Positions 4,331 through 28,338 of a DNA stretch of 64,000 nt are shown here, piece after piece. Below the pieces are notes generated by a model, which was not told where the DNA came from, made no database searches, and was given only the letters and a program-made list of their open reading frames with translations. The stretch is from a virus. The stretch covers positions 1-64,000 of the IMG/VR virus record IMGVR_UViG_3300025151_000001, one strand, 5' to 3'. The position numbers and the translations under genes are program-made. Position 1 is the first letter of the stretch; the number at the start of each line of letters is the position of its first letter.

Positions 4331-4459
4331 ATTGTCTAAGGAAGTCCCCCTTAGGCCCCTTTGTTCGCCTTTGGGCGTTCAAGTGGGGTTAGTGCAAAGC
4401 AAACCATATGGTAGTAACTTGCGGATTAGCGGGCTACCCCGACTAACCCCCCTTTTGGG

Positions 4460-4597
4460 TCAGCAACGCGTTCCTCTACACCACCTTTCCTCATCTGCTC
4501 GCTTTTCACACCCATACATCGAAATCACACCATCACAGGTATAGCACCTCTGAATGCCTTTTCCACAGTTTTCTTGATTACAGCACTTTTTCGCCAT
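4460..4597 (-). CDS. 45-aa Cys-rich microprotein MAKKCCNQENCGKGIQRCYTCDGVISMYGCEKRADEERWCRGTRC
   Basis: Manual translation; 8 Cys; ACCTTAAG box ~27 nt upstream on the minus strand. Confidence 0.65.
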   Translation of the reverse strand: MAKKCCNQENCGKGIQRCYTCDGVISMYGCEKRADEERWCRGTRC

Positions 4598-4734
4598 GTT
4601 TAGACGTTAGGTCACTAATACTTAAGGTTGTTCCTTAATTCCTTAATTACGTCTTTGACTCTAATTAAGACTCAACCATATGGTAGTAGGCTTTGTTTTA
4701 CTACCCCCATGAATAGCGTCAAAAACCGATTAAC

Positions 4735-4929
4735 ATGAAGATGGAGAGGTTCGAATTGGCTATGAAGCACCTTTTGAAAATGCATGAGAAGGTCATTGAT
4801 GATGCTATCCAACACCATGCCGTGAATAAGTCCTTCACAACGTATGCAAGCGTTGAGGCCCTTATCGCTCAAACTAAAGAAGATGCGGCCTTTGTTCTGA
4901 TGCACGGCAATATTGACGAGGAAGAGTGA
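4735..4929 (+). CDS. Small hypothetical protein
   Basis: ORF track; start matches promoter spacing. Confidence 0.7.
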   Translation: MKMERFELAMKHLLKMHEKVIDDAIQHHAVNKSFTTYASVEALIAQTKEDAAFVLMHGNIDEEE

Positions 4930-4933
4930 TAAA

Positions 4934-5170
4934 ATGAAGCAAGAAGAATCCGTTAGATTTGCTGAAGCCTTTGGATATAAACTGTATCAAGATGGCCTTC
5001 TGCCGCCTTTTGAAGAAAAGGGCATCTATGCAGCAATTGAAGCATTCTGTGGAGCGTGCATGGAAAACAACAACCGCTTCGATGAGGTGCTTTTCTTAGA
5101 AAAAGTGCATGAATTCCGTAACAAATTGATTCAAGAAGATTTGGATAATCATTACAGAGAAGAGGAGTGA
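4934..5170 (+). CDS. Small hypothetical protein, paralog family B (FAE.F...AFC.AC...N.RFDE)
   Basis: Similar to 5468-5668 and 11881-12072. Confidence 0.75.
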   Translation: MKQEESVRFAEAFGYKLYQDGLLPPFEEKGIYAAIEAFCGACMENNNRFDEVLFLEKVHEFRNKLIQEDLDNHYREEE

Positions 5171-5291
5171 AAAGTTAAAAACCCGATGACCCACCCTTAG
5201 GGGTGGCGAGGTCTTAAAATCAAAGTAAGACCATATGGTAGCAGGGCTTTGTTTCTGACTACCCTATCAAATGAGTTTGATTAACATTAAC

Positions 5292-5471
5292 ATGGCAACA
5301 GATTGGACACCTACGAATGTGCTTGAAGGATGGGAAGAGGTTTGGGTCACTTTCCACAGCGAAGAATTGAACAAAGATGTGACCATTGAGGTATGCTCCG
5401 TTGAAGACCTCATTTATCGCATCATTGGCGATTCTTCAGAAGTCGCGGCACGAATTGCAGAGGAGGAATGA
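5292..5471 (+). CDS. Small acidic hypothetical protein
   Basis: ORF track; start MATDW chosen from promoter spacing. Confidence 0.7.
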   Translation: MATDWTPTNVLEGWEEVWVTFHSEELNKDVTIEVCSVEDLIYRIIGDSSEVAARIAEEE

Positions 5472-5668
5472 ATATGGGAATGACCAGAAAGCACTTTATC
5501 ATCTTTGCAGAAGAATTTTCTAAGTTGAAGAACCGGATGGAAACGTCTTCCTATGGTTTGGAGCCTTGGACGGTATATTCTGAAATGCTCGTCGCTTTTT
5601 GCAACGCTGCAAGTGAAGTTAACGATCGATTCGACGAAGAACGGTTCATTGAGGCGGTGAATGAATAA
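5468..5668 (+). CDS. Small hypothetical protein, paralog family B (MTRKHF...NDRFDEERF)
   Basis: ATGA overlap with upstream gene; paralog similarity. Confidence 0.75.
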   Translation: MNMGMTRKHFIIFAEEFSKLKNRMETSSYGLEPWTVYSEMLVAFCNAASEVNDRFDEERFIEAVNE

Positions 5669-5808
5669 ATCAATAAGAAAACCAAAAAATAACCCTTCAA
5701 GGGTTGTTTTTCCTTCTATGTGGGGTTTTATTTTTCAAAGTCACATATTACCATATGGTAGTATGCTTTGTTTTCTACCCCATGAATAAAACCAAAAAGA
5801 AGTAAGTG

Positions 5809-5976
5809 ATGAACATCAAGAGGTTTCAAAAACTGAGGCATGAATACTTGGAAAAATATTTGCATTGTTCTCTTTCGTGGGAAATGGAATTCACATTTGA
5901 ACAGTTCCTTCTATTGGAACTTGAGGCCTATGTAGCCCTATTTCATAACCTTAAAGCCGAGGAGGAAGAAGAATGA
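5809..5976 (+). CDS. 55-aa hypothetical protein (MNIKRFQ...KAEEEEE)
   Basis: Manual translation; promoter spacing. Confidence 0.65.
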   Translation: MNIKRFQKLRHEYLEKYLHCSLSWEMEFTFEQFLLLELEAYVALFHNLKAEEEEE

Positions 5977-6140
5977 CCACGAAACAAAACGAACTTCTGA
6001 AAGAGATTAAAATGCTCAAGCGAGCAATCCGAAACATTGGGCATACGCCCGAAACGGAGAAAATCATTCAGGCACATAACCTTCTGGTTGAAATGTGCGT
6101 GGAACAATTTGAAGAGTTGAGGAAGGTGGAGTCAAGATGA
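5973..6140 (+). CDS. 55-aa hypothetical protein (MTTKQNE...KVESR)
   Basis: Manual translation; ATGA coupling and GGAGG upstream. Confidence 0.65.
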   Translation: MTTKQNELLKEIKMLKRAIRNIGHTPETEKIIQAHNLLVEMCVEQFEELRKVESR

Positions 6141-6389
6141 TGGAGAGGTTTAAGGAGAAATAAGACCGATGACCCCGGCCCATTTGGGTCGGGCGAGGTC
6201 TTATCACAAAGACAGACCATATGGTTTGAAACACAGAGAAAGAATCAAAATGGCTTAATCCCTACCCTCTCCCTATTATTGAATAGGTAGAAATAATCAT
6301 CCCCTTGATTTCCACACCATTTGTTAGGGTGCTTTCAATTGGAGATATGAGTATGAGTATAATCATATGGTATATACTATAGTTAAGTA

Positions 6390-6905
6390 AATGATGTTTC
6401 TAATCGAGGGCGGGCCTTAGAATAATACAAACATCAAGAAACTGAGGGCTTGTGCAACAGAACCGAGAGAGTTCTATATTATTATATTTTTATCATTATT
6501 ATACTACTACTACTACTACTACTACACACAGAGAGGGAATCACACAGGGAGAGAGAGAAAGACCCCCCCTTAGAAAATTAGAAAAATAGAATCGAAGTTT
6601 TTCTCAAAGGTCTGAAGGGTTTGTGCTGCACAGACCCTCAGAATCTCGATTCAGGCCCCCTTAGAATTTTCTTAGAAGGTTCGGGTGGGAAAAGAGTGCA
6701 TTTTTCAAAAGTTGATTTTCGAGCATTGTTAATGATTGTTTTAAATTTGATTATCTTAGAAAGCAATATAAGAGATTCCCTCCTCAATCCTAAAGTTTCT
6801 TTGCTCTTATGTAACACTTCTAACTAGGTTCTATTGTTAAGTGTGCCCTTCTCAGGGCATTAGACTCACCTTGGTTATTAGAATCTTTAGAAAGATTAGA
6901 AACTT
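6390..6905. repeat. Non-coding repeat-rich region: (TAC)8, GA/CA runs, many TTAGAA/TTCTAA copies
   Basis: (TAC)8 at 6502-6525; TTAGAA clusters near 6417, 6570-6585, 6661-6677, 6757, 6878-6902. Confidence 0.8.
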
Positions 6906-13556: not shown

Positions 13557-14024
13557 ATGGGATTTAGAAAGAACGATGAAGAAGCGCAAAGGCGTCGTGA
13601 CCTCCGAGCAAATGAAATTGCTTTGGAATATGCAAATAAGAAGGGCATTACCCCAACTGTGATTATGGGTAGTGAACTACATACTGTTGGTATGCCTATT
13701 GCTATAAATTGTTCAACTTGCATCGAAGAAGGTCTAGACCATAGAGATTCTCTTTTGATGATTGCTCATCACACAAATCCAATGAAAGATGAAGATTGGT
13801 ATACGAATCCTATTCTAAATGTGGAATGTATGAATGGTCATAAAGCATTCATTAAACTGAACACTATTCTTCATACGGGCAAATATCCCGTCCACCTTCG
13901 ATTTTTGAATGGTGGCGTTGCTTGGTTAGAAGAGGGAATTTCTATTGGGAATATTCCTTCCCTTAGAGAAGAAGGCTATTGGCCTTATAGCGATGATGAA
14001 CCGTCAATGGGGGTTATGAATTGA
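13557..14024 (+). CDS. Hypothetical protein (CxxC...CxxxH)
   Basis: Operon packing; ORF track. Confidence 0.7.
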   Translation: MGFRKNDEEAQRRRDLRANEIALEYANKKGITPTVIMGSELHTVGMPIAINCSTCIEEGLDHRDSLLMIAHHTNPMKDEDWYTNPILNVECMNGHKAFIKLNTILHTGKYPVHLRFLNGGVAWLEEGISIGNIPSLREEGYWPYSDDEPSMGVMN

Positions 14025-15280
14025 AATTAAGAAAACTTGGAAATGGTCATTGGGACCGCAAACTTATTGAGCGTATGCTTGAAATTTCTATTTCTCCTGA
14101 TATTGATGAGGCGCTGAAAGAATGGAAAGCCACGGGTGAATGTTGGTGGCCTTCCCTTAACAATACTAATCCTCCTGAATGGGTTCGTGAAAGTCGAACA
14201 GGTGTTGGATATTGTCTCTGTGGCCATGCTATCTATTACCACTTTGCTATTGAGAACACCGAGAATGGAACGAAAGAATGCGTTGGTTCTGACCATATTA
14301 ACGCTTACATGATTGCCCGTGCAATTGCAGATGAATTGGGTGTCGCACCTGAAACCATTAGTGATGATAAGATTGCTGATTGGATTAAGGTTCGCGTTAA
14401 GAACATGAAGGCAGATGCTTGGTGGGAAGAGAACGGAATTTGGTGGAACGACATGATTGATGGCCTTCGTCCTGTTGACCATTGGTTGAATTGGAAGAAT
14501 ACAGATGAACATGAATATGATTACGTTTATCGTTGGCATATCGTGAAGAAAATTCCTCGAAAGCGAGCAGAAGGAAAGTTTGGTGAAAGGAACTATCAAA
14601 TGGCTTCTGTGTTTTGGCGTTGGGATAATCCAGAAAACTCTCGTAATCAAATGGCTAGTCGCGGCTATCCGAATGATGCTCTTATCGCTGACGTGACTTA
14701 CCTTTCTTTTAAGAAGCCTGCTTATCTTAAGTATAAAGAAAGTCAAGATAAGAGAAAGGAAAACCGTCTTGAACAAATTCGCCTTGATGAAATTGCACGC
14801 CTTAAGCGAAAAAAGCGACAGGATGAAGAAAGAAAGGAAAGAGAGCGCCTTCAAGAGATTCAAAGGAAGAAGCATGAGGAAAATAGGGCATTGTCTCTTG
14901 ATGAATTACAACAAAGCATGACTTTTAGAAAGATGTGTAAGTTTTATGGCTCTCCTACGATTATTTCTGCCTATGCTTTTGATAGTGCTTCTTTGATAAA
15001 GTTGCGTAACTTTGCAGATTCCCTCTCTAAAGGAGAGCAGTTAGATGATTACGCTCTTAAGCAACTTGCATCAATTATGAGCGATAAGCGCAGAGTAACT
15101 GAAAAGCAAGTTAAGTTTATCAAGGACTTGGGTGGGGAAATTAGAGGCCCCATCACAAGATTTGAGGCTAGCACCTACATTGAAACTCTAATGGCTGAAA
15201 GGGACGGCAGGGATGCAGTAGCCGAACCAACGAATCAGCCTTATAGCCTGAGCGACCGTCCACAGAATAGGAGAGATTGA
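14021..15280 (+). CDS. Hypothetical protein with CxCGH...VGSDH metal motif, coiled coil and C-terminal TEKQ..EAS module
   Basis: CLCGHAI...CVGSDHI; charged helix; directly upstream of the Ubl gene. Confidence 0.75.
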   Translation: MKLRKLGNGHWDRKLIERMLEISISPDIDEALKEWKATGECWWPSLNNTNPPEWVRESRTGVGYCLCGHAIYYHFAIENTENGTKECVGSDHINAYMIARAIADELGVAPETISDDKIADWIKVRVKNMKADAWWEENGIWWNDMIDGLRPVDHWLNWKNTDEHEYDYVYRWHIVKKIPRKRAEGKFGERNYQMASVFWRWDNPENSRNQMASRGYPNDALIADVTYLSFKKPAYLKYKESQDKRKENRLEQIRLDEIARLKRKKRQDEERKERERLQEIQRKKHEENRALSLDELQQSMTFRKMCKFYGSPTIISAYAFDSASLIKLRNFADSLSKGEQLDDYALKQLASIMSDKRRVTEKQVKFIKDLGGEIRGPITRFEASTYIETLMAERDGRDAVAEPTNQPYSLSDRPQNRRD

Positions 15281-15281
15281 A

Positions 15282-15488
15282 ATGATTCGACTAAGAATTT
15301 TGAATGATACCGGCCATACAGAAGTCATGCTCGCCTCTTCCGAGGTAATTGAGCAAATTGATACCCACCCGACCCATTGGGTTTTCATCAATGGGGAAAT
15401 GGTGAGTCGTGAAGAGATTACGACACTCGATTGGAACACAGTCGAGAATGTTGACCTTACTCCGGCAATTGTTGGAGGTGCTTTCTGA
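15282..15488 (+). CDS. Ubiquitin-like (ThiS/MoaD/SAMP beta-grasp) protein with GG-AF C-terminus
   Basis: 68 aa; VFINGE motif; ends VDLTPAIVGGAF, matching the ThiS/MoaD V.I.P...GG pattern plus a 2-residue extension. Confidence 0.8.
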   Translation: MIRLRILNDTGHTEVMLASSEVIEQIDTHPTHWVFINGEMVSREEITTLDWNTVENVDLTPAIVGGAF

Positions 15489-15521
15489 GGACTACCTAAC
15501 GGTAATGCTCAGGAAACATTT

Positions 15522-15604
15522 GGGGAAAGAAGACCGCATCCCATTGTCTTCTTTCCCCTCCATTGGGGAGGGAATAGCCGTCAGGCTTTCCTTCCCCTTT
15601 TTTT
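15522..15604 (+). terminator. Tandem GC-rich hairpins plus T-run after the Ubl gene
   Basis: GGGGAAAGAAGAC/GTCTTCTTTCCCC and GGGGAGGGAA/TTCCTTCCCC-TTTTTTT. Confidence 0.7.
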
Positions 15605-15614
15605 ATTGAGAGTC

Positions 15615-15992
15615 ATGGACCTAAAGACGACAATTTCTGAGGGTGCTATGAAACTCATGTTTGAACTTAATGGTTGGACTTTAACCAAACCATTCATCCA
15701 CGAAGGTATTGCTTTCGTAAAGCCCGACTTCTATCCCGATAGATTCGTAATTGGGACAAGTAAGAAGGGCTACATTTATGCGGGGGGTCACTCTCGCATT
15801 ACTTACCGTGGTCGAGCCTTCGACTCGGTAAATGAATTAATTGATATGTATGGAAATTCAGCCATTGATAATTTTAAAGAATGGCTATTTGAGGTTGAAA
15901 AGGAATGGGTAATAACCAGAGATGGTAGTGACTTTATTTATTCCTTTACGACTCTCGATAAACTACCCAAAACAACTAAAGTGAGGTGCTAA
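15615..15992 (+). CDS. Hypothetical protein
   Basis: ORF track. Confidence 0.7.
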   Translation: MDLKTTISEGAMKLMFELNGWTLTKPFIHEGIAFVKPDFYPDRFVIGTSKKGYIYAGGHSRITYRGRAFDSVNELIDMYGNSAIDNFKEWLFEVEKEWVITRDGSDFIYSFTTLDKLPKTTKVRC

Positions 15993-15993
15993 A

Positions 15994-17847
15994 ATGAACA
16001 CAGAAATTTTGTCCGATATTACCGTGCATATGAAATATGCTAAATATAATTCTGAACTCTTACGAAGAGAAACTTGGAATGAAATTGTTGAGCGTAATAA
16101 AACTATGCATATTAAAACTTATCCGAATCTTTCGGAGGAAATCAAAAATGTCTATGAAAACTTTGTCCGAACCAAAAAAGTCCTCCCTTCTATGCGCTCT
16201 ATGCAATTTGGCGGTAAGCCCATTGAGATTAGTCCGAATAGGATTTACAATTGTGCTTATATGCCTCTTGATTCCTATTTATCTTTCTCTGAGGCTATGT
16301 TCCTTTTGCTCGGTGGAACGGGGGTGGGCTATTCCGTTCAACGACACCATATCGAACAACTACCAGAAATCAGGCATCCCAAGGCTGACCGGCAGCGTCG
16401 TTACCTTATTGCTGATTCTATCGAAGGGTGGGCTGATGCTGTAAAGGTTCTTTTTGAATGCTATATTGGAACCAGAACCTCAACACCTATCTTTGACTAT
16501 TCTGATATTAGACCGAAAGGTTCGATTCTTAAAACATCTGGTGGTAAAGCACCCGGTCCTCAACCTCTTCGTGAATGTCTAGTTAAAATTGAAGGTATTT
16601 TTCAAAACACGATTGATGGTGAGAAACTTTCAACCATTCAAGCACACGATATTATGTGTCATATTGCTGATGCAGTTCTTAGTGGAGGTATTCGTCGTGC
16701 GGCTATGATTAGTCTTTTCTCCGCTGATGATGCTGAAATGATTGCGTGTAAATCTGGTTCTTGGTGGGAGAACAATCCCCAACGTGGCCGTGCAAACAAT
16801 TCTGCCGTTATTCTCCGACACCGTGTAACAAAGGAATTCTTCATGGATTTGTGGAAGCGTATTGAAGCAAGTGGTTCCGGTGAACCCGGACTTTATTTCA
16901 GTAACGACAAAGATTGGGGAACCAATCCCTGTTGTGAAATTGCTTTGCGCCCATATCAATTCTGTAACCTTACAGAAGTGAACGCTTCTGATGTTGAAGA
17001 CCAAGCAGACCTCGAATCTAGGGTTAAAGCCGCCGCTTTTCTTGGAACACTTCAAGCCGGTTACTCTGATTTTCATTATCTTCGTGAAGTTTGGCGAAGG
17101 ACCACAGAAAAAGACGCATTACTCGGTGTGTCTATGACGGGGATTGCATCAAATCGTGTTGAAAACCTTGACCTTGAGATGGCTTCCTTTGCCGCAAAGT
17201 TAGAAAACAGTCGCGTTGCTAAGATTTTAGGAATCAAGGAGGCTTCTCGCGTTACTTGTGTAAAGCCTGCCGGAACAACTTCTCTTGTTCTTGGAACCTC
17301 TTCTGGCATTCATGCATGGCATGATAAATACTACATTCGACGCATTCGTGTTGGAAAGAACGAGGCCATCTATGGCTACCTTTCCCAGAATCATCCTGAG
17401 TTAATTGAAGATGAATTCTTTAACCCAACACAACAGGCAGTAATTTCTGTTCCGCAGAAGGCTCCCGAAGGTGCAATCACTCGTAGTGAAAACGTATTTG
17501 AACTTCTTGAACGGGTGAAGAACTTCAGCATTCGATGGGTGCGAAGCGGACACCGTGAAGGTTCAAACACACATAACGTTTCTGCAACTATTTCTATCAA
17601 GAAAGATGAATGGGGCGATGTTGGAGAATGGATGTGGATGAATCGCCACTATTACAATGGTTTATCCGTATTGCCTTACGATGGCGGAACTTATACACAA
17701 GCACCATTTGAAACCTGTAATAAAGAAACATTTGAAGAACTCTCAAAGGCTTTGAAGGGTCTTGACTTAACACAGGTAATTGAAGAAACAGATGAAACAG
17801 ATTTGTCTGGTGAACTTGCTTGTGCGGGTGGTGCTTGCGAAATCTGA
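15994..17847 (+). CDS. nrdJ: Ribonucleotide reductase, probably class II (B12-dependent)
   Basis: PSMRSMQFGG, YNC, TNPCCEI, FCNL, KPAGTTS, C-terminal CAGGACEI; no beta subunit seen in the window. Confidence 0.88.
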   Translation: MNTEILSDITVHMKYAKYNSELLRRETWNEIVERNKTMHIKTYPNLSEEIKNVYENFVRTKKVLPSMRSMQFGGKPIEISPNRIYNCAYMPLDSYLSFSEAMFLLLGGTGVGYSVQRHHIEQLPEIRHPKADRQRRYLIADSIEGWADAVKVLFECYIGTRTSTPIFDYSDIRPKGSILKTSGGKAPGPQPLRECLVKIEGIFQNTIDGEKLSTIQAHDIMCHIADAVLSGGIRRAAMISLFSADDAEMIACKSGSWWENNPQRGRANNSAVILRHRVTKEFFMDLWKRIEASGSGEPGLYFSNDKDWGTNPCCEIALRPYQFCNLTEVNASDVEDQADLESRVKAAAFLGTLQAGYSDFHYLREVWRRTTEKDALLGVSMTGIASNRVENLDLEMASFAAKLENSRVAKILGIKEASRVTCVKPAGTTSLVLGTSSGIHAWHDKYYIRRIRVGKNEAIYGYLSQNHPELIEDEFFNPTQQAVISVPQKAPEGAITRSENVFELLERVKNFSIRWVRSGHREGSNTHNVSATISIKKDEWGDVGEWMWMNRHYYNGLSVLPYDGGTYTQAPFETCNKETFEELSKALKGLDLTQVIEETDETDLSGELACAGGACEI

Positions 17848-17856
17848 GGTGATAAA

Positions 17857-18225
17857 ATGTTATTCTCTTCTTTTGAAGAGATGCAACTCGTAATCTATTC
17901 TCTAATTAAACAGAAGGAATTAAAATCCAAAAATTTAGAGATTGCTCTCAAAGCAACAAGTGTCTATTATAGTGACAAAGATAAAATCTTCAGAGTGTGG
18001 CAAACTCTTGAAAAAGAACTATGGTCTGTTCCAGAAGCAGTTGAAAAGGGATTCCATAAATACATCTCAGAAAAAAGAGAGAGAATCCTTCAAGCCTTTG
18101 AATATCATGATATCAATTGTCAATCTAAATGTAAATTATGTGAGGTTTTAATTTGTGTAAAAGAACAAGAAATTTCAATGTCGCTCGGAAAAAAGCCATC
18201 GAATGCGATTACTTCTACCGTTTAG
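17857..18225 (+). CDS. Hypothetical protein
   Basis: GAGGTGA SD. Confidence 0.7.
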   Translation: MLFSSFEEMQLVIYSLIKQKELKSKNLEIALKATSVYYSDKDKIFRVWQTLEKELWSVPEAVEKGFHKYISEKRERILQAFEYHDINCQSKCKLCEVLICVKEQEISMSLGKKPSNAITSTV

Positions 18226-18473
18226 GAGCAGTAATTGTTAAAGGTGGAAAGATTCTTTCCATTGCGAGTAATACTCGCAAAGGTCATGCTGAAGTGAACG
18301 CCATTAAACAGGCGAGCAAAACCGAAGGCGCAGACATTTATGTTACACGTCATACGCCAACAGGAATGGCGATGGCGAAACCATGCGATAATTGCATGGA
18401 AGCAATTAAAGCGGCGGGCATCCGTCGAATTTATTACACTAGCCGTGATGGCTACCATAAGGTGATGGTATGA
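18153..18473 (+). CDS. Zn-dependent cytidine/dCMP deaminase family protein
   Basis: GAVIV, HAE, PCDNC, GIRRIYY; start uncertain. Confidence 0.88.
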   Translation: MCKRTRNFNVARKKAIECDYFYRLGAVIVKGGKILSIASNTRKGHAEVNAIKQASKTEGADIYVTRHTPTGMAMAKPCDNCMEAIKAAGIRRIYYTSRDGYHKVMV

Positions 18474-18637
18474 AAGAACACGACCCGGAATATGTAAAAA
18501 ATATTAGAGGTTATAAAAAACGTGTAGCAACACGTTGTCGAATTTGTGGTGGACAACTCCTACACCCCGAAGACTTTAAAAGAGAGATGCACGAAAAATG
18601 TGCAAAATTAGAAGACAAATCAACTTATCTGATGTGA
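18470..18637 (+). CDS. Small Zn-finger protein (CRICG...HEKC)
   Basis: Manual translation MKEHDPEY...STYLM. Confidence 0.65.
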   Translation: MKEHDPEYVKNIRGYKKRVATRCRICGGQLLHPEDFKREMHEKCAKLEDKSTYLM

Positions 18638-18641
18638 TATT

Positions 18642-19778
18642 ATGGAATTAGAAAAAAATGTTAAAATTTATAAGCCTGACGATACTAGAGGGTTTTATAG
18701 CACAGTATTACTTCTTGGAGAAAATCATCCAAGTAGGATTGAAATACACCCTTCTAGGGCATTGAAAGACCCGGTTCAAGGAGCAATTGCTTCTGAGTTA
18801 AAACTTATTCTTCAGGGTAAGCACAGTCGTTGTTGGTTCTCTGTTTCTGCAAAACCTAAAACAATCACAATCGGTAGCCTACCTATCCTTATTCAAAAGC
18901 AAGGTAGTCGCTATCTTCTAAATGGTCAGGCGCTCAGTCTTAATGAAATTACGAACACTTTGGCGCGAGTAATGTATAAGAGTTGCTTCACTAACGACCA
19001 AGGACTTTTGATGAAGACTATGATTAGTTACATGAATATGCCAGAAAATGTTCGGTATGTTCTGGAGAATCGTCTTCCTTATTTCTTTTATGAGAACTTT
19101 AGGAAGATTGATGTTAGGCTTAACGTCATGCAAATTGAAGATGAGAAATGTGCCATTGAGATTTCAGATGGGGTATGGGGCGAAATTTCTTTCAAGGATT
19201 TGAATACGATGTGTAACTTCTATATCCACGGGAAGCAAAGGGGTTCATGGAAGTTTATTTCACCAGATGACCTTTACTTTAGGTTAGTTGGTGAGCAGAT
19301 TTCAGAATCAACTGAGAAAGTAATGCTTGAGTTTTTGAAGCAGAATCGTCAAAGTGACATTGTTGAAAAGAGAGCCGAAGAATTGATGATGGATTTGCAG
19401 AAACAATACCCTCAAAGAATTAAGATTGTTGAAGGAGAGGATGGAACTACCATGTATGTTCGAGGAAAGGGCTACGATTGGAAATTAACAGACAACAAAT
19501 ATAAGTCTGATATTCAACAAGTTAGCACATATGTCTGGCAACCGAACGGTGTGAAATCAAATTCAGAAACAAACGAAATTGAACTTTCTGAAGCAACTTG
19601 GCGAGGGCCAATTTGCATTGATAACATGGCTAGAGGTTCTTCTTTGGGCGACCAATTTGCTGCAAGAGCCCTTGCACTTCTAAATGACACTTTGACTATT
19701 CAAGTCGTGAATACAATTAAGCGTTACATCAACGCGAATGAAAATGAAAATAGGATTGATTGGCATGAAATGCGATGA
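18642..19778 (+). CDS. Hypothetical protein; C-terminal domain possibly E2-like
   Basis: Long ORF; TYVWQPN...GPICID resembles E2 HPN...GxICL; function tentative. Confidence 0.5.
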   Translation: MELEKNVKIYKPDDTRGFYSTVLLLGENHPSRIEIHPSRALKDPVQGAIASELKLILQGKHSRCWFSVSAKPKTITIGSLPILIQKQGSRYLLNGQALSLNEITNTLARVMYKSCFTNDQGLLMKTMISYMNMPENVRYVLENRLPYFFYENFRKIDVRLNVMQIEDEKCAIEISDGVWGEISFKDLNTMCNFYIHGKQRGSWKFISPDDLYFRLVGEQISESTEKVMLEFLKQNRQSDIVEKRAEELMMDLQKQYPQRIKIVEGEDGTTMYVRGKGYDWKLTDNKYKSDIQQVSTYVWQPNGVKSNSETNEIELSEATWRGPICIDNMARGSSLGDQFAARALALLNDTLTIQVVNTIKRYINANENENRIDWHEMR

Positions 19779-20598
19779 ATGTGGTTCGCGTAACAACACC
19801 TTCGATGAAAGAATGGGTGAACGCATTTGTGATGATTGCGGACTCGTTATTCAAGTCGAAGCCTTTGAAGAAACTGTTCGTCTAAGCATGGGCGAAGATG
19901 GTTCCTTTCGTTCCAAGGATTATGGTCTTGGTTCTGAAACTACCTTCATGAAGCGTGCAAAATCTTCAAGAAACGACTCTGAAAGAACACTAGAGAATGG
20001 TTATAGAGTCATGCGTATGGTAGTTTCATCTTTGAAGTTACCATTTAACATTAACGACAGATTAGAACAAATCTATCGTGAGTTGATTACTAAAGGTATT
20101 CTTTCTGGTTCTACCTTAGAAACAAGAGCAACAGCGATTGTCTACTACGCTTTGAAGGAAAATAGAACACCTGCAACCTTAAAAGAAGTCTGTGGTGAAT
20201 TCCAAGTCCAAAGCAAATTAGTTCGAAAACTAACTAGAAGAATTACTAGACATTATGGCAACAATGTATTAAGAAATGATGATTCCCATTTCTTAATGCA
20301 ACGTGCCATTGCGAATATTTCAAATGACCCTGCCTTTGTATCTCATTGTTTGCAGACATTTGAATTCTTTGAAAAACTAATGAAAGAATTAGATGAAAAT
20401 AAGACAAAGTTGCACTACGCAACAATGGTGTATTTTACATCATACATTCACAACTATCCATACTCAGCAACTTCGATTTCTAAAAATTTGAAGTGTTCTG
20501 CTAATGGAATCAGAATCTCCGGTAGGAGGTTGCTACCCCTAATTGGTCTAAAGGGAGTTGAGCAACTCAAAGGAATTGACCTAGAAAAATTGATGTGA
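19765..20598 (+). CDS. tfb: Transcription initiation factor B (TFIIB)-like protein
   Basis: Zn ribbon CDECGS...GERICDDCGLVI; GLGS; ERTL; cyclin repeats (A.AIVYYA...PATLKEV). Confidence 0.85.
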   Translation: MKCDECGSRNNTFDERMGERICDDCGLVIQVEAFEETVRLSMGEDGSFRSKDYGLGSETTFMKRAKSSRNDSERTLENGYRVMRMVVSSLKLPFNINDRLEQIYRELITKGILSGSTLETRATAIVYYALKENRTPATLKEVCGEFQVQSKLVRKLTRRITRHYGNNVLRNDDSHFLMQRAIANISNDPAFVSHCLQTFEFFEKLMKELDENKTKLHYATMVYFTSYIHNYPYSATSISKNLKCSANGIRISGRRLLPLIGLKGVEQLKGIDLEKLM

Positions 20599-20603
20599 TA
20601 TAA

Positions 20604-21161
20604 ATGAAGAAAGTATTGATTATTGGAGCAGGTGGTATTGGGAGTTTCTTGATTCCACTTCTAGACAGAATTAACGAATACGATATTCAGGTGGCTGACC
20701 CTGATAAGGTGGAGACAAAGAATCTCCTGTATCAGAATTACCTACCTTTGAATGTTGGGCAGAATAAAGCACAGTCAATGCAAGACATTCACAATAATGT
20801 CTCAAAGGCTAGCCCCTATCCAATTTTAACTGCGAAACAAATGGAAGGTTATGACCTTGTTGTTTCATGTGTAGATAACCTTGGAGTTAGAAGAACTCTT
20901 TACAACACAACCCTTAAGTGGCTTGACCTTCGCGCTCAAGGTAGAAATGCGGCTCTTGTGTCGCACAACGCGGACCCCTCGCTTTATGATACTCTCTTAG
21001 CAGGTCCAGAAGGTTCATTTTCATGCCAAGCAGGAGATTGGGACGGTTCAGGAAAGAATGTGAATCTAATGAATGCTATGATTGCAGGTGCAGGCGCTCA
21101 ATGGATTCAGAAGTATTTTAACAATGAAGAAACAAAAGCGTTTATGACGTTTAATATTTGA
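20604..21161 (+). CDS. ThiF/MoeB/E1-like adenylyltransferase
   Basis: VLIIGAGGIGS, DPDKVETKNL..Q, VGQNKA, DLVVSCVDN...R, WLDLR, candidate catalytic Cys in SFSCQ. Confidence 0.9.
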   Translation: MKKVLIIGAGGIGSFLIPLLDRINEYDIQVADPDKVETKNLLYQNYLPLNVGQNKAQSMQDIHNNVSKASPYPILTAKQMEGYDLVVSCVDNLGVRRTLYNTTLKWLDLRAQGRNAALVSHNADPSLYDTLLAGPEGSFSCQAGDWDGSGKNVNLMNAMIAGAGAQWIQKYFNNEETKAFMTFNI

Positions 21162-21171
21162 GGTGAATAAA

Positions 21172-21744
21172 ATGAAGTATAATAAATGGAAACAAGAAGA
21201 AATTAATTTTGTGCGAAAGTGCAGAAAGAAAGGAATGAAGTGGCGAGAAATTTGCGATAAACTCGAAGTAGTTTATGGACGAAAGACTACACCACAAAAC
21301 ATTATGCGCTTTAGGGAAGCAAAGCCAAAAACCGTAAATGTTAAGAAAGTTGTTGAGGAACTCGTTGAGCCAAAGGAAAAGAAGTGGGCTTACACCCGAT
21401 TTAACTATACTCCACAACAGGAGTTAGGAATTATGGTTGATTTCCCCAACCTGAGTATTGACGAAATGCGTGAAAAATACCAAAGAGATTATCGCGCCCT
21501 CGCAGCCCGATATGAAAACATTTGGGACTCGGAAGAACCTTCAAGAATTGCATTGGTTATGGAGGCTTCTCAGATTGTCGCCGCCCGTAAGGCGGAAGCG
21601 GACGAGAAGGCCACAGAACCCCGTATGGGATGGTTTGAGAAGCGAAGGATGCGACGTGTGGCGCGTAAGGCCGCGAAGATTCAGAAGCGATTGGATAAGA
21701 TGGCTACCAAGTATGGTGCAATTCTCACCAAAGGAGATGAATGA
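21172..21744 (+). CDS. Myb-like/HTH DNA-binding protein
   Basis: KWKQEEINF...GMKWREI..KL...GRKT. Confidence 0.6.
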   Translation: MKYNKWKQEEINFVRKCRKKGMKWREICDKLEVVYGRKTTPQNIMRFREAKPKTVNVKKVVEELVEPKEKKWAYTRFNYTPQQELGIMVDFPNLSIDEMREKYQRDYRALAARYENIWDSEEPSRIALVMEASQIVAARKAEADEKATEPRMGWFEKRRMRRVARKAAKIQKRLDKMATKYGAILTKGDE

Positions 21745-21745
21745 A

Positions 21746-22270
21746 ATGGGTAAGATTAAAGATAGGTTCTTTGATGAAATCAATTCAGAAGATGATTCTG
21801 ATTATGAATATTACCAATCTGCTGATAATGTAATCAGGGGTGCTTGGGATATCTGTATGGACCATTACGGTCAAATGTCAAACACGCATCATCCTGAATT
21901 GAATGAAGCAATCTGGGATTGTTCAACAATGTTGTTTCCCGGTCTTGAAATTCAAGTTGTGATTGATGGTGCAGATAATTTGCATTGGTCCCTCGGTTCA
22001 CCCGGATATGTTGATTTTCCTGCACCACCATACGGAATGAAATTGCCGATTAAGTGTTGGATTCATACTCATCCCTTTGGTTCTGCATATTTTAGCGGAA
22101 CAGATTGGAAGACTATTGATACATGGCGCATTCATATGCAACGTGCCGAAGTCCTTGGAAACATGGAATGGGGTGTTTGGGATGGTGAAGCGGGCCACCA
22201 ATACACCCATATTAAGGTTACAGAAGACAGTAACCTACTGCTAAGAAAAATTGGAAGTGAAGAAGAATGA
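21746..22270 (+). CDS. JAB/MPN+ (JAMM) metalloprotease
   Basis: Upstream Glu (LEIQ) and WIHTHPFGSAYFSGTD, matching HxHP-x-SxxD. Confidence 0.85.
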   Translation: MGKIKDRFFDEINSEDDSDYEYYQSADNVIRGAWDICMDHYGQMSNTHHPELNEAIWDCSTMLFPGLEIQVVIDGADNLHWSLGSPGYVDFPAPPYGMKLPIKCWIHTHPFGSAYFSGTDWKTIDTWRIHMQRAEVLGNMEWGVWDGEAGHQYTHIKVTEDSNLLLRKIGSEEE

Positions 22271-22668
22271 AGAAATTTGAAAGAAGACAACAAGAAAAGA
22301 GTCAATCATTTACGATTGACTATTCTAGGACCACGCGCCGTTATAAGAACGGAACTGCGAATATGCATACCGTTTATATTAACGAAACAATTGATGGAAG
22401 AGGTGGAAAGAAGTTCACCAACACCATTCAGATGCTTGTTCCTGTTGAACCTATGGAATGTTCAAAGCGTGTTGAAAAGCATAAAGCCCGCCATCCAAAT
22501 GATGTGAAGAAGATTCATGATGAGATGCACATTCCCGGTAATGCTCGTCAAGCAAAAGCCGGAAAGCGAGATAAGCATTTGAAGGAGTTTTATAAGACCC
22601 ACGTTTATGCTTACGTTTCTGAAGGAAAGCGTCGTTGGATTAAGATTCCCGAAGGTGATGAACAATGA
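22267..22668 (+). CDS. Basic hypothetical protein
   Basis: ATGA coupling at both ends. Confidence 0.7.
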   Translation: MKKFERRQQEKSQSFTIDYSRTTRRYKNGTANMHTVYINETIDGRGGKKFTNTIQMLVPVEPMECSKRVEKHKARHPNDVKKIHDEMHIPGNARQAKAGKRDKHLKEFYKTHVYAYVSEGKRRWIKIPEGDEQ

Positions 22669-22886
22669 TGAAAGCGGTTGGAAAATACGCTCTTATTCGT
22701 ATGGAAACAACAGAAACGAAAGGCGGCATCGTTACTTCTCATGGGAATGTAGGTAAGTGTATTTCCTGTGCTTATGAACAATCCATCGTAGGGAAGAAAG
22801 TTATGTTTAATGGTCGCAACTCATATGAAAATGATGGAGATATTCTTTTCGTGCCTTTTGAACACATTTTCTGCGTGGTGGACTAA
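22665..22886 (+). CDS. groES: GroES-like co-chaperonin
   Basis: MKAVGKYALIR...ETKGGIV...LFV..EHIFCVV; adjacent to GroEL. Confidence 0.75.
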   Translation: MMKAVGKYALIRMETTETKGGIVTSHGNVGKCISCAYEQSIVGKKVMFNGRNSYENDGDILFVPFEHIFCVVD

Positions 22887-22966: not shown

Positions 22967-24475
22967 ATGATTACTACAGAAAATGAAGTCAAAGAAAAAC
23001 TATTGAAAGGGATTAACATGGTTGCTGATGCAGTTTCGCCTACGCTTGGCCCACAAGCAAAGACGGCGATTCTTCAAGGAAACCCACCTGTGGTCATCAA
23101 TGACGGAGTAACTATCACCAAATACGTTACTCATGAAGACCCTTATGTTCAAATGGGTATTCAAATGGTTCAGAACCTTGCTTCACAAGCACAAGATAAG
23201 TCCGGTGATGGAACAACAACTGCGTGTATTCTTGCTCGCTCTCTATGCAACAGTATTTTCGACCACTACAAATACATTGAGAATATGCGAGACTTCCAAA
23301 ATGATTTAGAACAAATGCAAAGTTTTGTTGTGAACAAAATCGAAGAATCATCTATTGATATTAAAGAAGACGAAGTATTTGATGTTGCCTTTGTTTCCTC
23401 AAACAATGATACAGAAATTGCCGGTATGATTACCGATGCAGTTAAGACGGTTGGGAAGGACGGAGTAATTACTGTTCAAGAAGGTAAAACTTATAAAAAT
23501 CGCCTTATGGTTCGTGAAGGGGTTAGACTTGATGAAGGCTACTTAAGTCATCTTATGGCTAACAAAGAGGATGGAACGTGTGAGTTTGAGAACCCTCTCG
23601 TCTTTATGTCTAATCTTGCTTTCCGCAAATTCCAAGACCTTCTGCCTATGCTTGAGATTGCATCCACCAATAAAAGGCCGCTAATCATTATGTGTAAAGG
23701 CATTGAAGGTTCTGCAATGAATAACTTAATTGCGAACATTCTTCAACAGACTGTTCAAGTTGCTGCAATTCTTGCGCCTAATTTTGGTGATGCGCAGTTA
23801 GATGAGTTAGGCGACCTTAATGCTCTTATTGGTGGTAAAATTTATAATCATGAAAGTCGTGACGACCCAACCCTAGTTTCCATTGGAGATTTCGGTTCTT
23901 GTGATAGAGTCATTGTGACTAAGGAATACACGACAATTATCGGCGGTGACGGTGATGTTCAGTCCCGAATCGAAACGCTTCGTTCAATGGCTGAAGATAT
24001 GGAAGGATATGATAAGAACAGAATTAAGCATCGCGTTGCTCGTTTGAAGGGTGGAATCGCCACTATTGAAATTGGTGCTTCCTCTGCTATTGAAATGCGT
24101 GAATCAAAGGAAAGATTGGATGACGCTCTCAATGCAACCAAAGCCGCACTTGCTGAAGGTATCGTTGCGGGTGGAGGCATGACTTATGGTAATATCGCAA
24201 ATGCAATCATTGAAACGACTAATGATACTCCCGTGGAAATTATGGTTGTTCGTGCGTTAATGGAACCCATTACAGCATTATTGGCTAACTCCAACGTATC
24301 TAAAGAATCCTTTGAGACTTGGAAGGAAGGAGGTTTCAATGCCTTAACGGGTAAGTTTGGTGAACTAGATGATGTTTATGACCCTGCTCGCGTAGCCCGC
24401 GAATCTTTCTTAGCAGCAATGTCTATTGCTAAACTGTTCTTAACTACATCTGTAGCAATTACCGTGGAGGAATGA
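22967..24475 (+). CDS. groEL: Group I chaperonin (GroEL-like)
   Basis: TLGP, INDGVTI, GDGTTT, VGKDGVITVQE, D.GYLS, APNFGD, RLDDALNATKAA, EGIVAGGG. Confidence 0.93.
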   Translation: MITTENEVKEKLLKGINMVADAVSPTLGPQAKTAILQGNPPVVINDGVTITKYVTHEDPYVQMGIQMVQNLASQAQDKSGDGTTTACILARSLCNSIFDHYKYIENMRDFQNDLEQMQSFVVNKIEESSIDIKEDEVFDVAFVSSNNDTEIAGMITDAVKTVGKDGVITVQEGKTYKNRLMVREGVRLDEGYLSHLMANKEDGTCEFENPLVFMSNLAFRKFQDLLPMLEIASTNKRPLIIMCKGIEGSAMNNLIANILQQTVQVAAILAPNFGDAQLDELGDLNALIGGKIYNHESRDDPTLVSIGDFGSCDRVIVTKEYTTIIGGDGDVQSRIETLRSMAEDMEGYDKNRIKHRVARLKGGIATIEIGASSAIEMRESKERLDDALNATKAALAEGIVAGGGMTYGNIANAIIETTNDTPVEIMVVRALMEPITALLANSNVSKESFETWKEGGFNALTGKFGELDDVYDPARVARESFLAAMSIAKLFLTTSVAITVEE

Positions 24476-27539: not shown

Positions 27540-27887
27540 ATGCAAAAAACATACAATTATTTTACTGAAAACGATGGTTCTTCGATTGAAATTGATTCAA
27601 TGAACGCTAAACAGTTAGGCAGGGCTATCAAATCCACCTATGATAGACTGAGGGGGCAGTTTTACCTTCTATCTAGTTTGCATTCTAAATTAGGAGAAGT
27701 TAGGTCTAACAAAAAGACTCCAGACACAAAGAAAAAGGTCTTGAAACTGCTGAAGATTAAAAGTCTTCCCTCAGATAATGAAAAGCGATTAGAGCAAGTA
27801 ATTGAAACTGCAATCGTTCTTATGGACTCTGAAAAAGATTACGAATTTGTTAAAAAAGTATTAGAGCAGGGGATTAAAAATGATTAA
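27540..27887 (+). CDS. Hypothetical protein
   Basis: ORF track. Confidence 0.7.
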   Translation: MQKTYNYFTENDGSSIEIDSMNAKQLGRAIKSTYDRLRGQFYLLSSLHSKLGEVRSNKKTPDTKKKVLKLLKIKSLPSDNEKRLEQVIETAIVLMDSEKDYEFVKKVLEQGIKND

Positions 27888-28338
27888 GGAAGGACAATTT
27901 ACTATTATTGATGGAAAGACATATCAAGTTGTTAGAGTTGATGGGACATTTGCTCATCTTCATAACGTCGAAACTTATAAAGGGCGTCCACGCAAGATGC
28001 TTTTGTCGAGAGTCCCGTATTTTGATGAAAGTGGAACTCTAATAGAGCCAAAGCAGGAAAATACTAAGATTCCAACTAGAAAATTTCAATCGAAAGTAAA
28101 TGTAAGAGAGATTGTTAAGAACGAAACGGAAATGCAGGTTTCTAAAAAAGCAATTATGTTTCTTCAAGAACAACTTAGTAGCATTTGTGAAATTTTAATT
28201 TCAAACGCTGAACAAACCGCAGAAAGACATGGGCATTCGAGGATTGGACCAGAACATATTTGTTATCTCAATATTCCAGACCTTCATTATGAAATATTAG
28301 TTGACCATAAGGAATACATCGAGGACGGTATGGGCTGA
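27880..28338 (+). CDS. Protein with C-terminal archaeal-type histone fold
   Basis: VREIVK...QVSKKAI..L.E.L.......ISNA...A..HGHSRIGPEHI. Confidence 0.7.
   Translation: MIKEGQFTIIDGKTYQVVRVDGTFAHLHNVETYKGRPRKMLLSRVPYFDESGTLIEPKQENTKIPTRKFQSKVNVREIVKNETEMQVSKKAIMFLQEQLSSICEILISNAEQTAERHGHSRIGPEHICYLNIPDLHYEILVDHKEYIEDGMG

Follow-up and report, generated by a model that had tools for sequence, protein, structure and literature searches.

The 64,000-nucleotide stretch analysed here (the window; positions 1 to 64,000 of IMG/VR record IMGVR_UViG_3300025151_000001) belongs to the complete 92-kb genome of a magrovirus-type ocean virus of archaea, and it encodes a ubiquitin-like protein (Ubl), an E1-like adenylating enzyme and a JAB (JAMM/MPN+) protease which, as judged from sequence comparison, probably serve to tag proteins. 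The preferred reading, to which a probability of about 55% is assigned, is a self-contained viral module for Ubl activation and conjugation that is of the SAMP/UbaA/JAMM type and is built around a minimal E1.

The genes lie on the + strand in the early replication/transcription block. An earlier note on this DNA had described ORFs for a Ubl, an E1 and a JAMM protease dispersed among genes for RNR, a deaminase and TFB, and all three were found where claimed, at 15282–15488 (Ubl precursor, 68 aa), 20604–21161 (E1, 185 aa) and 21746–22270 (JAB, 174 aa), with RNR, dCMP deaminase and TFB genes scattered between them. A further + strand ORF at 18642–19778 (378 aa) is homologous to a family of conserved cysteine proteins, designated X. 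The viral TFB gene between X and E1 (19738–20598, + strand; Pfam TFIIB repeat and TFIIB zinc ribbon) keeps its position in related loci and is regarded as a neighbour gene for which membership of the Ubl system is not shown. The 193-aa ORF of the variable insert between E1 and JAB (21163–21744, + strand), which gave weak Myb/HTH-like hints, is missing in some relatives (G015, G021 and G013), where E1 and JAB directly adjoin, and it probably lies outside the Ubl system. The 419-aa ORF just upstream of the Ubl gene (14021–15280) showed no kinship with the X family (hhalign probability 0.1).

The Ubl precursor terminates in LTPAIVGG-AF, and its AF2 model (pLDDT 91) agrees with the β-grasp fold that had been proposed for it. 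The model has the element order β-β-α-β-β-α-β, and its Foldseek matches at ranks 1–50 consist almost wholly of ubiquitin, NEDD8, SUMO or ISG15 chains, or of entries in which these occur, with probabilities up to 0.97 and E values of only ~7e-3 to 3e-2 among the matches listed. VIA Z scores of 5.0–5.2 (rmsd ~3 over 58–63 residues) were obtained with a ubiquitin variant, MoaD and 8tyz_B, the latter being the Ubl of a bacterial E1-E2-Ubl complex. Identity in the structural alignments was 16–19% to MoaD, ThiS and TtuB, as compared with 6–10% to ubiquitin. Pfam ThiS did not match the Ubl protein, and searching the genome in six frames (E≤0.1) gave no ThiS hit; the Ubl is a separate sequence family inside the β-grasp fold.

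Among the 120 Ubl homologues in the matches listed, PAIVGG is invariant, GG near the C-terminus is kept in all 120, and a hypervariable tail of 0–4 residues follows: 32 sequences stop exactly at GG, and the others carry 29 different tails of 1–4 residues. Conservation of the GG is, judged by these alignments, above chance, and the variability of what follows it fits trimming by JAB, as expected from the earlier proposal that a masked GG needs such a protease. C-termini in the wider family include GG, AAG, FG and YG. Tandem Ubl repeats were also found, as was a Ubl bearing a 160-aa C-terminal extension, and these arrangements may be likened to polyubiquitin-type precursors.

The ThiF/E1-like assignment of the ORF at 20604–21161 was borne out by a Pfam ThiF score of 51.4 bits (cut-off 28.1), and profile searches of the PDB returned a ThiF-type protein (9egc), UBA5 and the E1 domain of Cap2 with E values of 5e-10 to 6e-9. 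The protein has the Rossmann features of ThiF, namely the GxGxxG loop, an acidic residue after β2, a Lys and the Mg-binding Asp of DN, and its invariant positions comprise GxGGxGS, D32, D34, K55, D91-N92, R96, D108, R110 and S140-C141-Q142. It is a member of a distinct 'mini-E1' clade as delimited by sequence searches (452 clusters at E<1e-10). As the protein begins at β1, it has no N-terminal helix with the Arg finger; CxxC zinc motifs and a rhodanese domain are absent as well. Tyr43 stands where the Arg of (S/T)NLxRQ is canonical in 33/33 aligned magrovirus-type E1s, and among 106 aligned sequences of the clade Tyr occupies this position 85 times, His 9 times and Phe 4 times. To our knowledge, active E1s almost always possess the NLxRQ Arg, the Arg finger and the zinc motifs; the invariant R96 and R110 might make up for the missing canonical Arg. 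The sole invariant Cys, C141 of the SCQ motif, falls in the alignment on the second Cys of the zinc CxxC in UBA5 and not on the catalytic Cys, and no Cys occurs downstream of it.

Such an atypical mini-E1, devoid of the canonical Arg and of a zinc site, could serve an adenylation chemistry other than conjugation, in which the C-terminus of the Ubl would yield a small product or be cyclised or amidated, with JAB effecting the release. The E1-like enzymes MccB and PaaA process peptide C-termini, MccB is among the PDB sequence matches of the viral E1 (E 1.6e-7), and the variation of C-termini in the wider Ubl family points in the same direction. However, the substrate is a well-folded β-grasp protein of 65–90 aa with a ubiquitin-like tail rather than a short peptide, and the partnership of a JAMM protease with a Cys protein is the pattern of a Ubl system. 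Processing of this kind is considered very improbable.

In searches against 50,697 GenBank records of phage isolates, the phage-type mini-E1 gave no match at E≤1e-8, and the matches of the magrovirus E1 were confined to remote E1-like genes of phages, crAss-like ones among them; in the one such context inspected, that of a bajarodcaudo virus, no Ubl or JAB was annotated. The magrovirus terminase found no magrovirus among the same records. A scan of genome contigs revealed magrovirus-type E1 on only two contigs, from one 'Maricaulis' MAG; since both bear magrovirus-like genes, they are probably mis-binned virus.

The ATG start of the JAB gene at 21746 agrees with the MGK(I/L)KD N-termini of its homologues, and the protein carries a helical extension at its N-terminus as well as an acidic EEE tail. 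The JAMM motif that had been recognised in it (HTH-x7-S-xx-D) holds in comparison, as 43 homologues share Glu68, His107, His109, Ser117 and Asp120 without variation, and an MPN fold was modelled by AF2 (pLDDT 82). Pfam Prok-JAB scored the viral protein at 16.8 bits, below the cut-off of 25 and over the motif region only, whereas the JAB of a phage-type cassette cleared the cut-off at 51 bits. The best Foldseek matches of the model were Caldiarchaeum Rpn11 and then PfJAMM1, and VIA gave Z 9.5 for AMSH (3rzu) and PfJAMM1 (5ld9), with rmsd 3.2–3.4 over 107–111 residues (Z 9.4–9.5 for PfJAMM1 entries 5ld9/5lda). JAB is missing from 0 of 6 cassettes with a tailed Ubl, as compared with 6 of 16 with an untailed one (one-sided Fisher p ~0.11), a difference that is suggestive, not significant, of loss only where the Ubl ends in a bare GG. 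JAB is still encoded in most of the cassettes with an untailed Ubl, and it therefore has a role other than trimming.

The co-occurrence check proposed in the earlier note came out in favour of a link: Ubl, E1 and JAB are each present in 17/17 relatives of ≥90% completeness and are jointly missing from fragments, and their order is syntenic in 11/11 related loci wherever the DNA is present. Moreover, 23 distinct loci of bacterial viruses contain a tight, overlapping cassette X-Ubl-(JAB)-E1, whose Ubl is homologous to that of the magrovirus group (hhalign 94.8%, E 5.5e-8). Natural fusions of the types Ubl-E1, Ubl-Ubl-E1 and E1-JAB occur in marine metagenomes, and the Ubl-E1 fusions support a putative enzyme-substrate relation of these two proteins. 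An apparent E1-X fusion, P0499, has an Arg-rich, frameshift-like middle and was counted as adjacency only. Modules of Ubl, E1 and JAB were also found on marine contigs with housekeeping and archaeal-type genes, where the proteins share 26–48% identity with the viral ones; these cell-like contigs are plausibly of the host lineage, and on them the E1-JAB pair overlaps or abuts the gene for Taw1, a tRNA-modifying radical-SAM enzyme.

As the kit recurs beyond this virus, both in further viruses and in archaea-like cells of the sea, often fused or tightly packed, it is taken to be a real working unit, and the assignment of Ubl, E1 and JAB to one functionally linked activation/processing unit is supported by these comparisons. 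In the window itself the three genes are separated by unrelated ones (RNR, deaminase, TFB), as would suit three unrelated genes brought within 7 kb by coincidence. Overlapping cassettes in unrelated viruses, gene fusions and strict co-presence in relatives already contradict this explanation, and its probability is close to nil. The earlier proposal that the virus runs its own Ubl pathway thus stood as regards a single activation/processing unit, evident from synteny, compact cassettes and fusions; it has to be qualified in that the E1 departs from the textbook enzyme and in that homologous modules on cell-like contigs place the system outside viruses too. The host proteins or host Ubl-based defence proposed as its targets are putative.

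The presence of such modules in what is plausibly the host lineage would also accord with viral Ubl, E1 and JAB that hijack or jam a host Ubl system and form no pathway of their own, for example with JAB stripping host Ubl conjugates or the viral Ubl acting as a competitor or decoy. Deubiquitinases by which eukaryotic viruses counter host tagging are well known and provide a precedent. Another is given by Borg elements, which carry many putative deSAMPylases (PMC12660748). However, all 17 complete relatives keep every part, among them an E1 of their own and a Ubl with an invariant GG, which is beyond the needs of a decoy or a lone protease, and the full cassette exists in bacterial viruses as well. 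Interference with a host system is therefore held to be improbable.

The earlier note had also allowed for a candidate E2, and comparative genomics ties the ORF at 18642–19778 to the system. Its residues 74–363 align with the C-terminal ~270 residues of the phage X proteins (hhalign 95.6%, E 1.3e-8), which are 550–870 aa long and whose gene precedes Ubl in 23/23 distinct bacterial-virus cassettes; X thus accompanies the module in 23/23 phage loci and in all magrovirus loci. Cys325, located in the motif ICIDN...GDQFAARALALLND and followed by a conserved segment of the GDQFAARALALLND type, does not vary among the X sequences, 10 of them of magrovirus type and 12 of phage type. This protein is a candidate fourth component that may act as a carrier or E2-like partner. 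The E2 part of the claim found no backing in sequence: no Pfam family matched at E≤1, UQ_con and Prok-E2 included, and X profile searches of the PDB gave no E2. A six-frame search of the genome with UQ_con was empty, but the controls were silent too. The ESM Atlas model of the ORF was uninformative (pLDDT 0.42), and a match of the X profile to the RNF8 coiled-coil/RING in the PDB (E 0.085) was insignificant and was dismissed. Cell-type cassettes include a ~240-aa protein (HWYD..W..IC..WPGD) upstream of E1, which has no Pfam or PDB match and aligned with the ORF at 18642–19778 only over the Cys motif (hhalign probability 10%, E 0.003); kinship of the two is unproven.

A sulfur carrier offers a different explanation of the same genes. 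The Ubl, trimmed by JAB and adenylated by E1, would be converted into a thiocarboxylate via host persulfide donors and would feed a thiolation, with tRNA, cofactor or nucleotide/DNA modification as outlets. QbsE/QbsC/QbsD, CysO/MoeZ/Mec+ and SAMP2/UbaA/NcsA work as sulfur-carrier pathways, and a masked-GG Ubl with E1 and JAB but no recognisable E2 is the composition of QbsCDE. Further points in favour are the absence of a clear catalytic Cys in the E1 crossover loop, structural-alignment identities to MoaD, ThiS, TtuB and CysO slightly above those to ubiquitin, the location of the Ubl gene next to the nucleotide-metabolism genes for RNR and dCMP deaminase, and the overlap of E1-JAB with Taw1 in cell-like contigs; synthesis of wyosine by Taw1, however, uses no sulfur. 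Genes of the ThiG, MoaE and NcsA types had been reported as not visible, and this was borne out for the complete 92-kb genome, in which no rhodanese, cysteine desulfurase or PP-loop thiolase was found either. The conclusion drawn earlier, that this argues against plain sulfur transfer, holds only in part: the virus has no sulfur donor or acceptor genes and its E1 no rhodanese domain, but QbsCDE and CysO/Mec+ use the same triad. A sulfur mechanism, in which host enzymes could substitute for the sulfur partners, is judged unlikely in view of the retention of JAB in most cassettes with a bare-GG Ubl, the constant company, in viruses, of a large conserved Cys protein unlike known sulfur acceptors, and Ubl-Ubl-E1 tandem fusions, which are unusual for sulfur carriers.

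Conjugation is accordingly the best reading as compared with sulfur transfer, given the invariant-Cys fourth protein, JAB beside bare-GG Ubls, tandem Ubls and the absence of sulfur genes. The replacement of the E1 Arg by Tyr, the lack of an Arg finger and of zinc motifs, the alignment of Cys141 with a zinc-ligand Cys of UBA5 and the dissimilarity of X to E2s in sequence weigh against it, as may, by analogy, the E2-less triads that drive sulfur transfer, the overlap of E1-JAB with Taw1 and a Ubl slightly nearer to MoaD, ThiS and TtuB than to ubiquitin.

Of the known systems, the closest to the viral module are SAMP/UbaA/JAMM and the bacterial Bil-type systems. The SAMP system (SAMP1-3, UbaA, HvJAMM1/PfJAMM1) likewise has a Gly-Gly β-grasp modifier, a single ThiF-type E1, a JAMM/MPN+ protease for trimming and deconjugation (a predicted role in the virus), no canonical E2 or E3 and an archaeal setting, and the viral JAB model matches PfJAMM1. 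The present module differs in being virus-encoded, in a Ubl outside Pfam ThiS and in the extra conserved Cys protein; its E1 of ~185 aa, as compared with ~270 aa in SAMP, has neither the canonical Arg nor an Arg finger nor CxxC zinc motifs and falls into a separate clade. In QbsE/QbsC/QbsD (thioquinolobactin) and CysO/MoeZ/Mec+ (cysteine synthesis), JAB exposes or releases the C-terminus of the Ubl; they share with the virus the masked-GG Ubl, JAB and E1 and the absence of an E2, but their E1s have a rhodanese domain and are encoded beside sulfur-accepting biosynthetic enzymes, neither of which occurs in the virus. Bacterial Ubl conjugation operons (Bil type, Bub and CBASS type II Cap2/Cap3) act in antiphage defence (PMC10557695, PMC10097602). 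They have the same four-part logic of a Ubl, an E1, a Cys-bearing carrier and a JAB peptidase, and Cap2 is among the best PDB sequence matches of the viral E1, as are 8tyz_B, Cap3 and BubCD among the structural matches of the Ubl and JAB models. These operons lie in host defence islands whereas the present system is carried by a virus, with dispersed genes in magroviruses, a partner protein without an E2-family match and an E1 that is far smaller and not fused to an E2.

The ubiquitin operon of Caldiarchaeum subterraneum encodes Ub, E1, E2, a RING E3 and Rpn11 (PMC5654768, PMC6043591). Its Ub-like precursor is processed by the Rpn11-type JAMM, and the viral JAB model has CsRpn11 as its best Foldseek match; the virus, in contrast, has no recognisable E2 or RING, a Ubl unlike ubiquitin in sequence and a minimal E1. 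Tail assembly in lambda/T1 phages involves TAPI (Ubl) and TAPK (JAB+NlpC/P60) (Iyer et al. 2006, PMC1779556), which are also a virus-encoded Ubl with a C-terminal glycine and a JAB peptidase. That pair has no E1 and belongs to a tail module, unlike the E1-containing system in an early replication/transcription block described here.

In the conjugation pathway proposed, the Ubl is made as the GG-AF precursor seen in the sequence. The JAMM protease would trim the tail, exposing Gly-Gly, and probably would also strip the Ubl from conjugates. The mini-E1, given its family membership and the Ubl-E1 fusions, would adenylate the C-terminal glycine with ATP, and the activated Ubl would pass to Cys141 of E1 or to Cys325 of the ORF 18642–19778 protein and then to lysines of viral or host proteins. 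The position of the genes in the early replication/transcription block makes remodelling of host or viral proteins during takeover the likely purpose.

A broader and rather doubtful extension is that archaeal and bacterial tailed viruses and marine archaea have in common a so far undescribed four-part Ubl conjugation machine, consisting of the Ubl, a mini-E1 lacking the canonical Arg, a JAMM protease and a new Cys carrier unlike E2s in sequence, which the viruses would use early in infection to tag transcription and replication proteins of the host or of their own. A TFB gene stands beside E1 in the window, and in the phage cassettes a sigma-70 factor gene occurs 0.5–4 kb downstream of E1. If true, the four-part machine would be a virus-run counterpart of the ubiquitin-like defences Bil and CBASS of hosts.

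Accounts of Ubl conjugation in prokaryotes have until now treated it as an instrument of the host (SAMPylation, Bil, Bub, CBASS Cap2/Cap3). In the literature searched, the only Ubl system of a prokaryotic virus was the E1-less lambda tail-assembly pair, and the magrovirus papers among it did not mention the module. Magroviruses rank among the most abundant archaeal viruses of the surface ocean. With its compact phage cassettes and natural fusions, the system lends itself well to tests in E. coli. A virus-owned Ubl system would supply enzymology with a very small E1 (185 aa) of unusual active-site chemistry, would bring a new family of Cys partners into the evolution of E2-like carriers, and would be a handle on the takeover of Poseidoniales cells by uncultivated magroviruses.

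The source record of the window is 92,240 bp long with direct terminal repeats, and its completeness is rated 100%. By gene content it is a tailed, magrovirus-type virus of archaea, with genes for TFB, a class II ribonucleotide reductase (RNR), dCMP deaminase and a Cpn60/TCP1-family chaperonin, for a family-B DNA polymerase, an RFC-like AAA ATPase and ATP-dependent ligases, for portal, prohead protease, SU10-type capsid protein and terminase, and for tRNA-Leu, tRNA-Lys and tRNA-Arg. The group B magroviruses described in PMC5434244 likewise have RNR, a chaperonin (called GroEL there) and tRNA-Leu/Arg, in agreement with this set. Two genes encode ATP-dependent DNA ligases: one lies inside the replication block of the window, and the other (832 aa; genome 68059-70557, equal to 4059-6557 of locus L013, - strand) belongs to the late (structural) arm, where it is flanked by the capsid genes and the portal gene. 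The replication block also holds a 152-aa ORF (27880-28338, + strand) that matches the Pfam core-histone family at 28054-28263 (25 bits, E 1.3e-6, just below the cut-off of 26.4) and may encode an archaeal-type histone. A 73-aa ORF kept in relatives (22665-22886, + strand) lies directly upstream of the chaperonin gene (22967-24475, + strand). GroES is reported to be absent from chaperonin-bearing magroviruses and phages (PMC5434244), so this ORF is a candidate co-chaperonin.

The three ORFs that the earlier note assigned to a ubiquitin-like protein (Ubl), an E1-like enzyme and a JAB protease are all present. The 68-aa Ubl ORF (15282-15488, + strand) is assigned to no Pfam or PHROG family, and 299 homologue clusters were found for it. 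Across the 120 homologues listed, the last eight core residues are nearly fixed, reading LTPAIVGG in 101, and the GG is followed by nothing in 32 and otherwise by 29 different tails of 1-4 residues, for example NY, NL, VC, AF, SY or Q. Such a combination of an unvarying GG and a freely varying tail is characteristic of Ubl precursors. The proposed β-grasp fold was borne out by a confident AlphaFold model (pLDDT 91) and by structural matches to ubiquitin-type folds; almost all of the Foldseek matches listed are chains of ubiquitin, NEDD8, SUMO or ISG15, or entries that include such chains, with modest E values of about 7e-3. In an exhaustive structural search, a ubiquitin variant, MoaD and the Ubl from a bacterial E1-E2-Ubl complex were matched at Z values of about 5. 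The fold does not tell modifiers and sulfur carriers apart.

The 185-aa ORF (20604-21161, + strand) passes Pfam ThiF at 51.4 bits, as expected of a ThiF/E1-like protein, and its closest counterparts among solved structures are a ThiF-type protein (9egc), UBA5 and the E1 domain of Cap2 from CBASS. In a profile search over 1.84 billion representatives, this mini-E1 fell into a large clade of proteins of 185-215 aa (452 clusters at E<1e-10). It starts at strand β1, without the N-terminal helix bearing the Arg finger, and the near-universal Arg of the NLxRQ motif is replaced by Tyr43 in 33/33 aligned magrovirus-type mini-E1s; among 106 aligned clade sequences, 85 have Tyr here, 9 have His and 4 have Phe. 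Neither of the two CxxC zinc motifs is present in the mini-E1, and its single invariant Cys (Cys141, in an SCQ motif) aligns with a zinc-ligand Cys of UBA5 and not with the catalytic Cys. The mini-E1 retains the glycines that bind the nucleotide, along with D32/D34, K55 and D91; R96, D108 and R110 are invariant throughout the clade. From these residues we infer that the mini-E1 would be an active but mechanistically divergent adenylating enzyme.

The 174-aa ORF (21746-22270, + strand) matches Pfam Prok-JAB weakly (16.8 bits). Its identification as a JAMM protein is upheld by Glu68, His107, His109, Ser117 and Asp120, which are invariant across 43 homologues, and by its model (pLDDT 82), which superposes on AMSH and on PfJAMM1, the SAMP2 protease of the SAMP system (Z 9.5), as well as on Caldiarchaeum Rpn11, Cap3 of CBASS and BubCD. 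Nearly all JAB homologues end in an acidic E-E-E(-E) tail, which is kept also where the preceding 30 residues vary.

Four independent lines of evidence, namely synteny, co-presence, compact cassettes and gene fusions, indicate that the Ubl, E1 and JAB genes form one system. Eleven related IMG/VR loci (E1 identity 54-94%) keep the block wherever the DNA is present, in the order Ubl, 128-aa ORF, RNR, ..., 378-aa ORF, TFB, E1, (193-aa ORF), JAB, chaperonin, and E1 and JAB directly adjoin in some relatives. In 26 further records, reached via terminase, each of the three genes occurs in 17/17 of those at least 90% complete, as co-occurrence would have it; three fragment records without one of the genes are without all three, and a fourth stops right after Ubl. 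The genes for Ubl, E1, JAB and terminase each occur twice, as non-identical copies about 90 kb apart, in IMGVR_UViG_3300021958_000021 (184,733 bp), which looks like two related magrovirus genomes joined into one contig. Two contigs of a 'Maricaulis sp.' MAG (NZMJ01000073.1 and NZMJ01000151.1) include magrovirus-like RNR, X, TFB, E1, JAB and chaperonin genes; they are probably viral and were assigned to this bacterial genome through mis-binning.

Compact cassettes were fetched via a distant E1 branch whose members share 33-51% identity with the query profile and about 35% with the window E1. The contigs reach 230 kb and carry a nearby sigma-70 factor, so these loci belong to bacterial viruses. 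The gene order X (550-870 aa), Ubl, an optional ~260-aa gene, JAB, mini-E1 recurs in 23 distinct loci, where neighbouring genes touch or overlap; X and E1 occur in all 23, Ubl in 22 and JAB in 17. One such compact cassette is that of locus L098 (4928-8594). The small proteins are homologous to the magrovirus Ubl (hhalign 94.8%, E 5.5e-8), both having the signatures GH(T/D), W-x-(Y/F)-x-D-G and a later GG, and the phage JAB passes Pfam Prok-JAB at 51 bits. In L116 (6753-7460, + strand) and identically in L118, the 235-aa Ubl protein continues beyond its GG with an extension of ~160 aa and may be a natural Ubl fusion precursor; in L103 and L111, the separate ~260-aa gene lies between Ubl and JAB, where the L116 Ubl has its extension. 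TFB (19738-20598) is directly upstream of E1 in the archaeal virus, and sigma-70 is 0.5-4 kb downstream of E1 in phage cassettes (L098 9047-9862, L103 8893-9705, L111 9528-10343). In archaeal and bacterial viruses alike, the module thus neighbours a transcription initiation factor that the virus itself encodes, which could be functional or could reflect shared early-gene placement.

Fusions in marine metagenomes place one or two Ubl copies N-terminal to the mini-E1 (P0398, P0509, L257-L261), or join mini-E1 to JAB in proteins of 396-463 aa (GxGGxG near residue 20, SCQ near 165, JAMM near 325) with a Ubl gene just upstream.

A fourth component is suggested by X (18642-19778, + strand, 378 aa), residues 74-363 of which are homologous to the C-terminal ~270 residues of phage-cassette X (hhalign 95.6%, E 1.3e-8, 237 columns). 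Both X families share one invariant cysteine (Cys325 in the window) within I-C-I-(D/V)-(N/D), followed by a conserved G-x-D-x-(F/L)-x-x-R-x-x-A-L-x-N-D segment. On this homology, the system comprises Ubl, mini-E1 and the Cys protein, usually with JAB. In Pfam and PDB profile searches, X showed no sequence resemblance to E2 families or to any solved protein. In cell-type cassettes, a ~240-aa family with no match in Pfam or PDB is encoded directly upstream of E1 (L321 7222-7983, L308 7273-7989, L331 4551-5279, L336 1378-2097), and appears to be translationally coupled to it. Its invariant residues, H-W-Y-D ... W-x-x-I-C ... W-P-G-D, are reminiscent of the E2 HPN...C...W-x-P layout.

The earlier note had read the module as a virus-run tagging pathway. 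Its unity and the lack of sulfur enzymes stand; protein conjugation itself is given a probability of about 0.55, because the conserved Cys protein always accompanies the module, most cassettes with a Ubl already ending at GG retain JAB, and tandem and long-extension Ubls exist as precursor forms. A purely sulfur-carrier role is rather improbable. In its favour, QbsCDE and CysO/Mec+ are sulfur-carrier triads of exactly this make-up, and the mini-E1 has no evident catalytic Cys. The start of mini-E1 in the E1-JAB pair of a cell-like marine contig (L279 6944-9157) is also overlapped by the gene for the radical-SAM, tRNA-modifying wyosine enzyme Taw1; however, Taw1 uses no sulfur. A Pfam survey of 108 ORFs and six-frame searches found no rhodanese, cysteine desulfurase, PP-loop thiolase or ThiG/MoaE-type enzyme in the complete viral genome, though host enzymes could serve instead. 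Archaeal SAMPs serve both conjugation and sulfur transfer through one E1, and by this analogy a dual role of the viral module is possible.

The fusion-bearing metagenome loci carry housekeeping genes (Taw1, Dus, a phosphate transporter, a fused 3-hydroxyacyl-CoA dehydrogenase/enoyl-CoA hydratase, GDP-mannose dehydratase) and have nothing besides the module in common with the virus; therefore they look cellular and archaeal, plausibly from the host lineage. In one (L257 7881-11012, Ubl-Ubl-E1-JAB), Taw1 is convergent to the module.

Ubiquitin, ThiF, JAB and MoaD are not mentioned in three magrovirus papers, PMC5434244 among them, nor is the cassette in a jumbo-phage survey; further searches of the literature outside subscription journals turned up nothing on it. 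In phages, Iyer et al. 2006 (PMC1779556) described only the lambda TAPI/TAPK pair, which has no E1, whereas the magrovirus and phage cassettes have a mini-E1. The system is thus a Ubl system of the SAMP/Bil kind that is carried by viruses. The viral JAB is nearer to cell-type JABs (33-48% identity) than to phage JABs, and X is common to magrovirus and phage cassettes; thus, the kit is a mosaic moving between cells and viruses.
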